Origin: Promethearchaeota archaeon
GTDB taxonomy: Archaea; Asgardarchaeota; Lokiarchaeia; Sigyniarchaeales; SOKP01
Assembly: GCA_016930515.1 (NCBI GenBank)
Contig: JAFGGO010000130.1
Coordinates: 1 to 19,383, forward strand
Direction of reading: 5' to 3'
DNA length: 19,383 bases
The translations under genes and the position numbers were made by a program. The notes beneath the pieces were generated by a model, which saw nothing but the letters and a program-made list of their open reading frames with translations, did not search any database and was not told where the DNA came from. This document shows, piece by piece, positions 4,211-8,518 of the stretch; the stretch's first letter is position 1, and the number at the start of each line of letters is the position of its first letter.

Positions 4211-4738
4211 CTACCCTTCTTGCTCTAGCACATCGTAAAATATCTTATAATCTTCATCAGAAAACAAACAAAAAACAACAATTTCAATTCCCGTGTTTTC
4301 TTTCAAGTAATTTATCACGGTATTAATCATTATTTGAGCACATCTATTGATTGGATATCCAAAAATACCAGTTGATATAGCTGGAAAAGCAATTGATTTT
4401 AAAGAATGTTGATCGGCTATAATGAGACTATTTTTCGTTGCCATTTTAAGCTTATAGTCTTCGTTTCCTTCGCCCATTCGAGGCCCTACAGCGTGAATAA
4501 CATGTCTTGTTTTTAATTTTCCTGCTGAAGTAATGGCCGCTTCGCCAACCTTTATTGGTGAAACATTATTGCATTGTTCTTGTATTGAGGGGCCTCCTTT
4601 CGTTCTAATCGCACCTGCGACACCCCCTCCTAATATAAGATTTGAATTAGCAGCGTTAACAATTGCGTCAGTGTTTTGATTCGTGATATCGTCCTTTACG
4701 ATTCTTATCGTGGAATTATTAATCCTATATTCTTTCAT
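4211..4738 (-). CDS. Macrodomain protein (MacroD/YmdB type; O-acetyl-ADP-ribose deacetylase / mono-ADP-ribosylhydrolase)
   Basis: DDIT..DAIVNAAN..L.GGGVAGAI, VIHAVGP, SIAFPAISTGIFGYP. Start placed at ATG 4738 (MKEYRINN, 175 aa), not 4834, because the domain begins there. A 5-nt gap to the methyltransferase suggests an operon. Confidence 0.92.
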   Translation of the reverse strand: MKEYRINNSTIRIVKDDITNQNTDAIVNAANSNLILGGGVAGAIRTKGGPSIQEQCNNVSPIKVGEAAITSAGKLKTRHVIHAVGPRMGEGNEDYKLKMATKNSLIIADQHSLKSIAFPAISTGIFGYPINRCAQIMINTVINYLKENTGIEIVVFCLFSDEDYKIFYDVLEQEG

Positions 4739-4992
4739 AACAAGATCTATTTGTTTAACTTGCTTTAAGTTTATTGCGTTATTATGAAATTTGAAATGGA
4801 TCATGTAAAACGATGAAAAATTCAAAATAACCAAATTTTTAAATTTTAGAAGTTATATTGAATCAATTAAGTTTGAAAAATGTTTTTCTAAAAATAATTG
4901 TAAAATCGAGTTTATTTACAATAGATTAAATTATTTCATAAATTACCTTAACATATAGTGCACCCACTAAAAGACCAAAGAACTGAAGAAAA

Positions 4993-5919
4993 TTGATTTC
5001 GAGAGTATTAGTTATAGCGCAAGGTGGTTTATTGGCATATTCCAAGAATTTTATCAACATAGCGGAAAGTCGGGATAGTGGTGCTACAGAAGGAGATTTA
5101 ATTAGCGGTTTTATCTCCGCCATAAGTACATTTGCCAAGGAAATAAAAGGTGGAAACATCCATTCACTTAATTTTAAAAACTTTAATATTGTCATGGAAT
5201 ACGACACGGAAACTGATACTATATTCTTTATAATTTGCGATATAAACGATATTGAGGAGGAAGTACGAGAACGCTCGATACTGTTGAAGGAGGAATTCAT
5301 AAAAAGACATAAAGAAAGACTCATGAATTGGACAGGGGAGCTTGTTCTTTTTCAAGACATGGAAGCGTTCGTGGAAGAAAATATCTTTATTCCTCCAAAA
5401 ATACTTATTGTTGGAGAAGTAGGTGTTGGAAAAACTACTATAATGGATTTATTCCCCGGAGAAACTATTATAGAGATTGACGAGGATTTAAACGAAATTA
5501 TTCAAAAGACAATTTATGTACAAGGTCTTAACCTCAGGCAATTCATTATTAGGGAGATGAACATTGAAGAGTTAGTTGACAATTCCAAGCTTTACAAGCC
5601 TCTTTTAAACAACGCCGATATTATTATCATCGTTACTAATTCTGGAGCAAGTAATTTAGCAAGAACTGCAAAATTATATCCTATCTTGAAAAAACTAGTT
5701 AAAAAAGCGGATTTTTATGTGATTGCCAATTTTCAAGACAATAAGGAACTGGCGTTTGAGCCAATCAAGATTGAAGAATTATTCGATGGGCTCAAGACAT
5801 ATGGATTTGCTGGAACGGAAAAAAAAGCTCAAGAAAAGATGTTCAATATAATGGTTGATGTGTTAAATAAATCCATTGTTGAAAAAATACAACACGATAA
5901 TCAAGAGATAACATCGTGA
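4993..5919 (+). CDS. Longin-like domain fused to a degenerate small GTPase (Ras-superfamily fold)
   Basis: TTG start. N-terminal ~125 aa fits a longin pattern (RVLVIAQGGLLAYSKNF...DLISGFISAISTFAKEI.GGNIHSL...IFFIICD). C-terminal half has the P-loop ILIVGEVGVGKTT, ADIIIIV strand and a G4-like ANFQD, but no DxxG G3 motif. Confidence 0.75.
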   Translation: MISRVLVIAQGGLLAYSKNFINIAESRDSGATEGDLISGFISAISTFAKEIKGGNIHSLNFKNFNIVMEYDTETDTIFFIICDINDIEEEVRERSILLKEEFIKRHKERLMNWTGELVLFQDMEAFVEENIFIPPKILIVGEVGVGKTTIMDLFPGETIIEIDEDLNEIIQKTIYVQGLNLRQFIIREMNIEELVDNSKLYKPLLNNADIIIIVTNSGASNLARTAKLYPILKKLVKKADFYVIANFQDNKELAFEPIKIEELFDGLKTYGFAGTEKKAQEKMFNIMVDVLNKSIVEKIQHDNQEITS

Positions 5920-6475: not shown

Positions 6476-7345
6476 ATGACAGCTAATAACGATTATAAAA
6501 TCATAGGTCAAGAATCCATCGACGACGATATTTACGATCGACAAAAACGAATTAAAGGATGGGATCAAAAAAGGATTTCTAACGCTACAATCATGGTAAT
6601 TGGCGCAGGAGCGACAGGAAATGAAGTTGTAAAAAATTTAGTGTTATTTGGTATAGGAAAAATAATTCTTGTAGATTACGATACAATTAATGTATCGAAC
6701 TTGAATCGATGCGTTTTATTTAACATTAAGAGCGCTCAAAAAAACGAGTACAAGGCCGATGTAGTTAAAGAAGCTTGCAAAGACTTGAATCCTGATGTTG
6801 AGATTGCATCCTTAAAAGAAAATCTAAGCGATATAGACAAAAATCTCTATAAATGTGATGTTGTATGTTCCTGCGTTGATAACGTGGAAGCCCGGATTGA
6901 AGCCAATAATTACGCTTATTATTACGGAACACCATTTGTTGATAGTGGAATCGATGAATTTTTTGGGAGTGTTCAAGCAGTATATTCAAGAGTTCCAGAC
7001 GCAGCATGCTTGCAATGTGGAATCTCGGGAAAGGATTTGGATATAATGTGGAAAAGATTTTCCTGTACTGGTCAAGAAATTGAATCGGAAAACGGAGAAA
7101 CTGTGGGAAAAATAGCTACAATTATCACCACTACCTCAATAATTGGTGGAATACAAGCTCAACAAGTCCTCCAATTCGTTTTAGGTGTCGATTACTATAA
7201 AAAGCATGGACACTGGAATCTTGATATCGGTGAACCGCTCGTCGGAAAGCAACTTAACTATAACGGTCATACGAACAAGTTTGACATTATAGAAAAGGTG
7301 AAAAATCCCAGTTGTTGGACATGTTCTTATGAAAAAAAAGATTAA
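6476..7345 (+). CDS. Ubiquitin-activating enzyme E1-like (ThiF/MoeB/UBA family)
   Basis: YDRQ, GAGATGNEVVKNL, VDYDTINVSNLNR, YKAD, CVDNVEAR; Zn pairs C178-L-Q-C181 and CWTC; candidate catalytic C197 (RFSCTG) between them. Confidence 0.93.
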   Translation: MTANNDYKIIGQESIDDDIYDRQKRIKGWDQKRISNATIMVIGAGATGNEVVKNLVLFGIGKIILVDYDTINVSNLNRCVLFNIKSAQKNEYKADVVKEACKDLNPDVEIASLKENLSDIDKNLYKCDVVCSCVDNVEARIEANNYAYYYGTPFVDSGIDEFFGSVQAVYSRVPDAACLQCGISGKDLDIMWKRFSCTGQEIESENGETVGKIATIITTTSIIGGIQAQQVLQFVLGVDYYKKHGHWNLDIGEPLVGKQLNYNGHTNKFDIIEKVKNPSCWTCSYEKKD

Positions 7346-7421: not shown

Positions 7422-7967
7422 ATGCCAGAACTACCGCACGAAATATGGAAAGAACGAATTGAAAACGAAATAAAGGGATTGAATCGCCTCGAGGTGCTCG
7501 AACCAGGTTCCATCCTCAAAAACGAAGACACGGTCGAAATGGTTCTTAACATTCACGCGTTTGGATTTATCAAAAAGAAGAAAAAATTAGTCCCCCAAAC
7601 TAATCATCGTATATTCATCAAAATAAATCGGGCTTTCCCATATCCAGGAGGTATTGATTTTGCATGGTATTCTAACATCTACCATCCAAACATTCATCCT
7701 GTGGATTTGAGCAATAAACAGCAGGGAACGGGATATATTTGCTTGAATGTGCTAAAAAAATGGTCAAGACTCTCGGATTTAGAAACGACTGTAAAAGCTT
7801 TGAAAATGCTTGTTGAAAACCCAAACCCAGATGATCCCTTAAATTACGACATTTGCTTGGATGCTACTGAATTTTTCAAAAACAATTCAATGGAAGATTT
7901 GATAAAGCAATATAGTTTACCAGAAGAGGACGAAGACGAAGACGAAATTAAAATAATAGATGATTAA
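7422..7967 (+). CDS. Ubiquitin-conjugating enzyme E2 (UBC fold) with an acidic tail
   Basis: ERIENEI first helix, FPYP, IYHPNI (H88-P-N90), GYIC107LNVLKKWS, L..L..NPNPDDPLN; C-terminal EEDEDEDE. Confidence 0.93.
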   Translation: MPELPHEIWKERIENEIKGLNRLEVLEPGSILKNEDTVEMVLNIHAFGFIKKKKKLVPQTNHRIFIKINRAFPYPGGIDFAWYSNIYHPNIHPVDLSNKQQGTGYICLNVLKKWSRLSDLETTVKALKMLVENPNPDDPLNYDICLDATEFFKNNSMEDLIKQYSLPEEDEDEDEIKIIDD

Positions 7968-8162: not shown

Positions 8163-8250
8163 TTATTTTTTTAATTCTTCGTTTTTTTATGCATTTCGAT
8201 TTTCTTATTATGTTTTTTTTAATTAATTAATGAAAAATAGAAAAAAGAAA
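8163..8250. terminator. Bidirectional T-tract terminator region between convergent units
   Basis: Several T6-T8 runs on + after 8156, then A-rich runs (T on minus) at 8233-8250 downstream of the Ubl gene. Confidence 0.5.
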
Positions 8251-8260
8251 TTTAAGGCCA

Positions 8261-8518
8261 CTAATATCCTCCCACGACTCGAGCCCATAACGCTAATTTA
8301 TCGTTTTCTTTCAAACCAAACTTATGTATTGCATCTTGAATGGTGGAATCTGGAGGGAGTTCCTTGTTGTTCAAAACTAAAGTAAAGCTACGCTGTTCAG
8401 CACTAATTATTCCCATGTGCTTGATAATGATGTCAACTATTCGTTCGATTTTGTGGTGTTCTTTTACATCGAGCTTGATTAATTTTCCAGTCCGGGAATC
8501 TTCTACTTGTATGCGCAT
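8261..8518 (-). CDS. Ubiquitin-like protein precursor (beta-grasp; ends ...RVVGG-Y)
   Basis: 85 aa; aligns by eye with ubiquitin (MRIQV..TGKLIKLDV ~ MQIFV..TGKTITLEV; LVLNNKEL ~ LIFAGKQL; TIQD ~ TLSD; LWARVVGG ~ LVLRLRGG). Minus strand reads gga gga tat tag. Confidence 0.88.
   Translation of the reverse strand: MRIQVEDSRTGKLIKLDVKEHHKIERIVDIIIKHMGIISAEQRSFTLVLNNKELPPDSTIQDAIHKFGLKENDKLALWARVVGGY

Follow-up and report, generated by a model that had tools for sequence, protein, structure and literature searches.

Among the genes of a Lokiarchaeial contig is a short reading frame for a ubiquitin-like protein (Ubl) in which the C-terminal Gly-Gly is followed by a single tyrosine. This arrangement raises the question of whether the gene encodes a modifier that is made as a blocked precursor and, if so, which enzyme would take the last residue off. 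Among prokaryotes, the ubiquitin systems of Asgard archaea offer the closest models for the origin of eukaryotic ubiquitin signalling, and to our knowledge none from Lokiarchaeia has been reconstituted so far. The window considered here is the whole stretch of DNA that was analysed, 19,383 nucleotides forming contig C187 of a 4.0-Mb Loki-type Asgard metagenome-assembled genome (MAG; 94% complete, 5% contamination; G000). The reading favored throughout, and judged to be likely, is that the gene encodes a eukaryote-type Ubl precursor belonging to a Lokiarchaeial JAMM-E1-E2 module, which is capped, matured by the JAMM protease of the operon and then conjugated. The features of the locus are collected in Table 1.

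Table 1. Features of the Ubl locus and its surroundings (positions within the window).
Feature	Positions	Strand	Basis or remark
Macro-domain protein gene	4211-4834	-	PF01661 1.2e-38; divergent from the longin-GTPase gene
Longin-GTPase gene	4993..5919	+	heads the enzyme row; synteny in G005, G010, G015, G018, G024
Rpn11-like JAMM/MPN+ metalloprotease, 162 aa	5959..6447	+	PF01398 1.5e-10
E1-like adenylating enzyme, 289 aa, ThiF fold, CxxC...CxxC	6476..7345	+	PF00899 5.9e-50
E2-like UBC enzyme, 181 aa, convergent with Ubl	7422..7967	+	PF00179 9.5e-11
T-rich run	8231-8260	-	TTTCTTTTTTCTATTTTTC, directly past the Ubl stop
Ubl precursor reading frame	8261..8518	-	85 codons + TAG stop; translation begins MRIQVEDSRTGK, ends LWARVVGGY
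Ubl stop codon TAG	8261-8263	-	codon reading
Tyr85 codon TAT, one-residue cap after Gly-Gly	8264..8266	-	translated reading frame
Gly83-Gly84 codons GGA GGA	8267..8272 (Gly83 8270-8272, Gly84 8267-8269)	-	Gly83 in 120 of 121, Gly84 in 121 of 121 members listed
CxxCxxCC (PF03692) zinc-/iron-chelating protein gene, 237 aa	8641-9354	-	His-rich C-terminus; directly upstream of Ubl

The first-pass annotation of this DNA had described the gene as a precursor ending RVVGG-Y-stop, and the reading is correct to the base: the final codons on the minus strand are GTC GTG GGA GGA TAT TAG. The mature modifier is predicted to consist of residues 1-84, ending RVVGG, and Gly83-Gly84 is where adenylation, thioester formation and conjugation are predicted to take place after removal of the cap. 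The gene is convergent with a row of longin-GTPase, JAMM, E1 and E2 genes on the plus strand. The T-rich run that follows its stop codon resembles an archaeal oligo-T terminator, and the gap between the E2 and Ubl genes holds T runs for the plus strand too. The pairing of the Ubl gene with an upstream PF03692 gene on the same strand is found within the same genus only (G003 and G005), none having been seen in the other genera. At the far end of the row, the macro-domain neighbor is also present in G005 (68% identical), and its match to DarG in PADLOC is weak (0.0037).

The family to which the protein belongs can be approached through its predicted fold and through sequence profiles. The AF2 model, built on the family alignment, has a pLDDT of 78.7 and shows strands at residues 2-7, 13-17, 43-49, 52-54 and 74-81 and helices at 24-35 and 60-67, the beta-beta-alpha-beta-beta-helix-beta order of a ubiquitin-like beta-grasp. 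Residues 83-85 are disordered (pLDDT <50), and the Gly-Gly, conserved among the listed family members, sits in the model on a flexible C-terminal tail. The model matches ubiquitin (2zcb) with a Z score of 12.2 and an rmsd of 1.4 Å over 73 residues, and Caldiarchaeum CsUb (6fnn_C) with a Z score of 11.8. All of the best 50 Foldseek rows are ubiquitin-type (ubiquitin, NEDD8, SUMO), and the best matches from Foldseek and VIA are ubiquitin, NEDD8, SUMO, ISG15 and CsUb, with Z scores of 11.8-12.4. A scan of 48,161 representative chains that did not rely on Foldseek placed ubiquitin-type chains in 49 of the best 50 positions (Z 11.9-10.0), the remaining one being the beta-grasp subunit of toluene monooxygenase; ThiS, MoaD, Urm1 and SAMP chains, whose own Z values were not returned, do not occur among these best 50 (Z>=10.0). 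With the sequence as query, phmmer against the PDB retrieved polyubiquitin (0.0099) and NEDD8 (0.09), and a profile of 57 family members retrieved ubiquitin chains only. The ESM Atlas labels the protein "putative ubiquitin-like domain-containing protein". In Pfam, no PF00240 match was obtained at E<=0.1 and the ubiquitin gathering score is not reached, the PF00240 profile picking up other Ubls of the source genome and not this one. The sole Pfam match is Rad60-SLD at 21.9 bits, below the cut-off of 23.8, and neither ThiS (PF02597) nor MoaD or their relatives match at E<=0.1. The fold searches and the PDB profile search point to ubiquitin, as the first-pass annotation had proposed; among the best 50 chains there is no sign of a fold closer to ThiS/MoaD, and an identity of the protein as ThiS/MoaD was rejected on Pfam, the PDB profile search and the fold searches.

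A related proposal is that the Ubl serves as a sulphur carrier or is a non-conjugated beta-grasp protein, whether ThiS/MoaD/Urm1-like or a Ubl-domain adaptor, in which case GG-Y would be incidental. The E1 of the row is indeed small and MoeB/ThiF-like, with CxxC pairs and with NCBIfam ThiF/MoeB domain-level matches below cut-off, and some distant relatives of the Ubl (P0140, P0141) are N-terminal Ubl domains without GG. This proposal is nevertheless very improbable, since the Ubl is inherited together with a UBC E2 and an Rpn11-like JAMM, the E1 scores best against eukaryotic Uba1 and the C-terminal GG is invariant apart from Gly83 in one listed member, in addition to the Pfam and fold results given above.

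For a comparison of individual residues, equivalences were taken from HMMER alignments of the Ubl to ubiquitin and NEDD8. K12 corresponds to ubiquitin K11 (TGK on TGK) and is lysine in 116 of the 121 listed members, whereas K52, which corresponds to K48 (NKEL versus GKQL), is lysine in 26, glutamine in 76 and arginine in 14 of them. R80 corresponds to ubiquitin R72, with arginine in 87 and lysine in 34 listed members. In the profile alignment, ubiquitin K63 falls on Glu71, near which lie K66 (invariant), K70 (93/121) and K74 (114/121). The positions of ubiquitin K6, K27 and K29 are occupied by other residues, and K33 of the Ubl lies one position before ubiquitin K33. An initial by-eye alignment is therefore borne out for K12, K52 and R80, and its lysine near K63 is loosely true in view of the three neighbors of Glu71. 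The accompanying idea that ubiquitin-like chain lysines are a feature of the family is not supported, because the K11 equivalent is the one conserved lysine that matches directly: a conserved K48-type lysine is ruled out by the predominance of glutamine at K52 among the listed members, and a K63 equivalent by the glutamate at that position. Moreover, most columns of the Ubl are invariant, so conserved lysines alone are no pointer to chains.

The genes of the enzyme row resemble those of eukaryotic and Caldiarchaeal ubiquitin systems. The JAMM protein has a complete catalytic set (E31, H101-x-H103-x7-S111-x2-D114), and its best PDB match is CsRpn11 (6fjv, 1e-9), with Rpn11 of yeast and human and CSN5 coming next; in the comparison with CsRpn11, its block VGWWHSHPNFGVFLSPTD is aligned to VGWYHSHPGLDVFLSPTD. 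By analogy, it is the candidate maturase and deconjugase of the Ubl. The E1 finds its best PDB match in the active adenylation domain of eukaryotic Uba1 (4.5e-27), and the PDB matches of the E2 are UBC enzymes of eukaryotes, UBE2N among them (~1e-6). No RING E3 is found among the reading frames of the window. In a tblastn search with RING-type proteins of G015, more than 20 loci were detected elsewhere in the source genome (e.g. on C157, C45, C32 and C145) and none on the contig of the window. These loci carry genes with a C-terminal C4C4 RING-like zinc finger that resemble the membrane RING proteins flanking the Ubl in G015 (L022:8491-10842), and their sequences make them candidate E3s encoded away from the Ubl locus. 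Membership of a known defence system was also considered and gained no specific support, as PADLOC and NCBIfam returned generic domain matches only: PADLOC v2.0.0 (2023), which may be without Bil models, gave generic Cap2/Cap3 domain-level matches, to JAB (36.8 bits) and E1-E2 (63.2 bits), with no match for the Ubl or the E2. The source genome contains additional ubiquitin-type genes. A second cluster (C26:1475-6972) comprises a 268-aa JAMM, a 175-aa E2-sized reading frame, a 415-aa E1 and two Ubls of 120 aa with acidic N-terminal extensions, which end AG-KV and AG-YF. Two further Ubls of 83-84 aa end AGG-S (C1:3746-4000) and AGG (C57:194-445). All four match PF00240.

If the tyrosine is a cap, homologues would be expected to keep an extension after the Gly-Gly. 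A word-indexed search returned 167 homologues, for which 120 listed clusters (74-100% identical, 81-103 aa) come from Loki-type Asgard MAGs, with source labels that include Promethearchaeota and Lokiarchaeia. The tail counts, which are descriptive and not probabilities because the sequences are related, show an extension in 107 of the 120 listed clusters (about 89%): the tail is one residue long in 48 (the mode), two in 20, three in 21 and four to ten in 18, and it is missing in 13. The mean length of 2.2 among the listed clusters compares with ~13 expected for random sequence of the same genome composition, for which P(0) is ~0.07. The first tail residue in the listed clusters is F in 36, S in 21, Y in 15, L in 9, I in 7, N in 6, C in 5 and K and E in 2 each, and never D, Q, G, V, P, M or W. 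Thus, F, Y or S comes first in 67% of the tails, whereas composition predicts ~17 for F, Y and S together and ~26 charged residues, a bias that could partly reflect codon bias.

The tails change much faster than the protein in front of them. Among the listed homologues, 75% of the pairs with >=97% identical cores have unlike tails, and identical 79-aa cores are followed by Y or N in one case and by F, A, S, C or FLIIDYEY in another. At the position of Tyr85, relatives with identical or near-identical cores have Y, N, K, I or no residue. On a rough tree of the cores, the first tail residue has changed at least 52 times and switches between tail and no tail number 9, with tail-less forms scattered singly (9 changes for ~13 rows). 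The orthologue of the same genus in G003 differs from the window at 36 nucleotides over 84 codons and at 0 amino acids (dN/dS ~0.007), and its codon 85 is AAG (Lys) where the window has Tyr; in other relatives, the tails SAF (G027) and YYKQ (G015) were read directly. Turnover of the tail beside a near-frozen core is the pattern left by a segment that does not remain in the mature protein, and the very strong purifying selection together with the frequency of tails in the listed clusters argues that GG-Y is not a chance feature. It could be objected that the tyrosine codon stands in place of a stop through an error of assembly or sequencing (TAT for TAA or TAG), as a single base suffices and the sequence stems from one MAG with 5% contamination. 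Such an error is extremely improbable given the share of tailed clusters and the Y, N, K or I that other samples give on identical or near-identical cores; moreover, the tails are family-wide, so it would leave the conclusion for the family unchanged. When 1.84 billion representatives were searched exhaustively with a profile, no more than 30 matches reached E<=0.001 and a single one reached E<=1e-30, and these small numbers indicate that the Ubl family is tight and restricted. No description of the Lokiarchaeial Ubl family or of its tails was found in literature searches.

How a capped Ubl may be matured is known from two systems. In C. subterraneum, the precursor CsUb-pre carries nine residues after GG and is refractory to the E1 until an Rpn11 homologue makes its cut exactly behind GG; besides, CsRpn11 cuts linear fusions and isopeptide-like conjugates, and its rate is modulated by the post-scissile residues, with C79E and G80W blocking and C79G speeding the reaction (PMC5654768; PMC6043591). 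In Ensifer aridi, the JAMM protease BilC cuts the Ubl BilA between Gly97 and Ala98, i.e. it removes a one-residue cap (10.1101/2023.09.26.559546). For the Lokiarchaeial protein, Tyr85 would block the carboxylate that the E1 must adenylate, and the operon JAMM would hydrolyse the Gly84-Tyr85 bond, as CsRpn11 does on CsUb-pre and BilC on BilA. The 84-residue Ubl could then be activated by the E1, handed to the E2 and attached to lysines, and the same JAMM may also strip it from conjugates. By this analogy, the precursor is probably matured by the JAMM of its own operon. A third precedent shows that the contrast drawn in the first-pass annotation, according to which ThiS, MoaD and SAMP usually end at GG, was too sharp: C. 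subterraneum SAMPs are made as precursors with post-GG tails that are cut by CsJAMM (PMC6043591). As these SAMPs and the C1 paralogue of the source genome (AGG-S) are also tailed, post-GG tails are not specific to ubiquitin.

The distribution of the genes among related genomes bears on the choice of the maturing enzyme. The convergent row is kept in the five genomes named in Table 1, and in G003 the contig stops within JAMM, short of any longin-GTPase gene. Among 41 related genomes, the Ubl is present in 12, a JAMM orthologue in 13 and an E2 orthologue in 11. JAMM occurs in all 12 Ubl-bearing genomes and in G002 (68% complete), and all 11 genomes with the E2 orthologue carry the Ubl. In family f4, no enzymes adjoin the Ubl, and E2 and JAMM orthologues are encoded elsewhere in those genomes; G033, assembled as one contig, retains Ubl, JAMM and E2 at 0.04, 1.44 and 2.50 Mb. 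The presence and absence of the Ubl module split within four genera of the 41 relatives. Across the same genomes, identity to the proteins of the window is 77-94% for the Ubl, 44-52% for JAMM, 60-74% for E2 and 70-82% for E1. Tail-less Ubl orthologues, which end exactly at GG, stand in the JAMM-E1-E2 row of G005 and G018. A Ubl paralogue of 37% identity in G009 (L030; C18, ~118819-119031) has no GG end and runs into a longer protein (>=133 aa); this genome is without JAMM and E2 orthologues.

The cap might instead be removed by another enzyme, either a JAMM paralogue or a carboxypeptidase, leaving the operon JAMM to act as a deconjugase only. Such a division of labor would fit the retention of JAMM by tail-less orthologues and the presence of at least four further JAMM loci in the source genome (on C26, C32 and two on C68), and a single C-terminal residue may be a possible substrate for a carboxypeptidase. 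It is rather unlikely, as JAMM accompanies the Ubl in all 12 related genomes that have it, tails of up to 10 aa and linear fusions need an endopeptidase that cuts after GG, and CsRpn11 and BilC do both jobs, CsRpn11 and CsJAMM being partner-specific (PMC6043591). With the operon JAMM as the maturase, its persistence where the Ubl is uncapped could be due to the same enzyme also acting in deconjugation.

Whether the cap regulates the pathway is a separate matter. The first-pass annotation had JAMM gate the pathway by removing the tyrosine, and this part is not supported: 13 of the 120 listed clusters are uncapped, and the orthologues of G005 and G018 are tail-less yet keep the row. The retention of JAMM by tail-less orthologues implies that tail removal is neither the sole nor an essential role of JAMM and that the cap can be dispensed with. 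The strong form of this idea, in which the cap is a regulated safety catch and selection maintains the block to make activation dependent on JAMM, would account for the modal tail length of 1 rather than 0 in the listed clusters, for the single scattering of tail-less forms on the tree and for the preference for F, Y and S directly after GG. The tail-less state nonetheless arises repeatedly with the operon unchanged, the tail changes in sequence almost as a neutral segment would, no sign of JAMM regulation was seen and the same pattern is expected if efficient removal makes caps harmless, which renders a safety catch improbable. Rather than as a regulated gate, the cap is most readily understood as a pro-residue that is tolerated and cheap to remove, F, Y or S being mildly preferred and charged residues rare after the scissile bond.

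In comparison with known systems, the closest likeness is to C. subterraneum (PDB 6fnn, 6fjv). Both have an archaeal ubiquitin-fold modifier with a post-GG propeptide, encoded alongside an Rpn11-like JAMM, a Uba1-like E1 and a UBC E2. The tail is nine residues in C. subterraneum and one in the Ubl of the window (0-10 among listed family members). The C. subterraneum operon includes a small RING E3, whereas the Lokiarchaeial locus is without one, is headed by a longin-GTPase, has its Ubl gene convergent with the enzyme genes and encodes a JAMM that is a minimal MPN domain. Moreover, the Ubl family described here occurs only in some lineages of Loki-type Asgard archaea, and its sequences are far better conserved than those of its enzymes. 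The bacterial Bil system (BilABCD) likewise consists of four genes, for Ubl, E2, JAMM and E1, with no E3, and is patchy in the manner of an accessory module; its one-residue cap after the reactive glycine is cut by the operon JAMM, as would be the case here. In contrast, Bil is antiviral, and the Lokiarchaeial E1, E2 and JAMM find their best-scoring matches in proteins of eukaryotes and Caldiarchaeum.

Eukaryotic ubiquitin, NEDD8 and SUMO share with the Ubl the fold (Z ~12) and precursors with a variable short C-terminal extension to be removed before E1 activation. Ubiquitin itself is 25-32% identical and shares the TGK (K11), R42 and R72 equivalents as well as extreme conservation. The Ubl differs from ubiquitin in two insertions (SxT after R43 and AIHK after D62), in Arg9 at the position of ubiquitin L8, in having a conserved direct equivalent for one of the seven lysines and in ending RVVGG instead of LRLRGG. 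The processing enzyme also differs, being presumably JAMM for the Lokiarchaeial Ubl and a cysteine DUB for the eukaryotic precursors. SAMP, ThiS, MoaD and Urm1 have in common with the Ubl a beta-grasp, a C-terminal GG and a ThiF-family E1, and some are JAMM-cut precursors (CsSAMP, CsJAMM, PMC6043591); they give no sequence match to it, and their systems are without an E2.

Since Caldiarchaeum and bacterial Bil have already provided proof of the mechanism, the gain is one of breadth and not of principle: by analogy with CsUb and Bil, the capped Lokiarchaeial Ubl would be a further example of it. The set is compact, with four proteins, no E3 and a one-residue pro-form, and the natural tail variants (0-10 residues) could serve directly as a set of substrates for an Rpn11-like enzyme. 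In addition, the contrast between the conservation of the Ubl (77-94%) and that of JAMM (44-52%) indicates that precursor synthesis and ubiquitin-grade conservation already co-exist in archaea.

A more speculative reading holds that the short cap itself is selected, within an accessory and possibly conflict-related tagging module (Bil/ISG15-like) that uses eukaryotic-type precursor logic. This is doubtful and is put forward only tentatively. It rests on a hyper-conserved, patchy and E3-less second Ubl module that travels with a longin-GTPase, and it draws on the modal one-residue cap, with an aromatic residue or Ser after the scissile bond in the listed clusters, as well as on TIR/LRR fusions and linear Ubl-GG-Ubl-GG-protein polyproteins in distant relatives. 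One such relative, P0132 (TXT64257.1) from the BAJALOKI1 Lokiarchaeote MAG, contains a copy of the Ubl (46% identical) ending VVGG, followed by a second Ubl unit that is 37-42% identical to the C1 and C57 proteins and ends QKGG, and then by ~340 residues. In P0124 and P0133, a Ubl-GG unit stands before or inside proteins of 590-660 aa without a Pfam domain. These three look like polyprotein precursors that would need a GG-specific endopeptidase. In two further distant relatives, the Ubl lies at the N-terminus of a larger protein: in P0141, the order is Ubl, LRR and TIR (TIR_2 4.2e-9), and in P0127 two Ubl units are followed by a weak TIR or nucleoside deoxyribosyltransferase-like region and then by a zinc ribbon, architectures that hint at conflict or immunity-type contexts.
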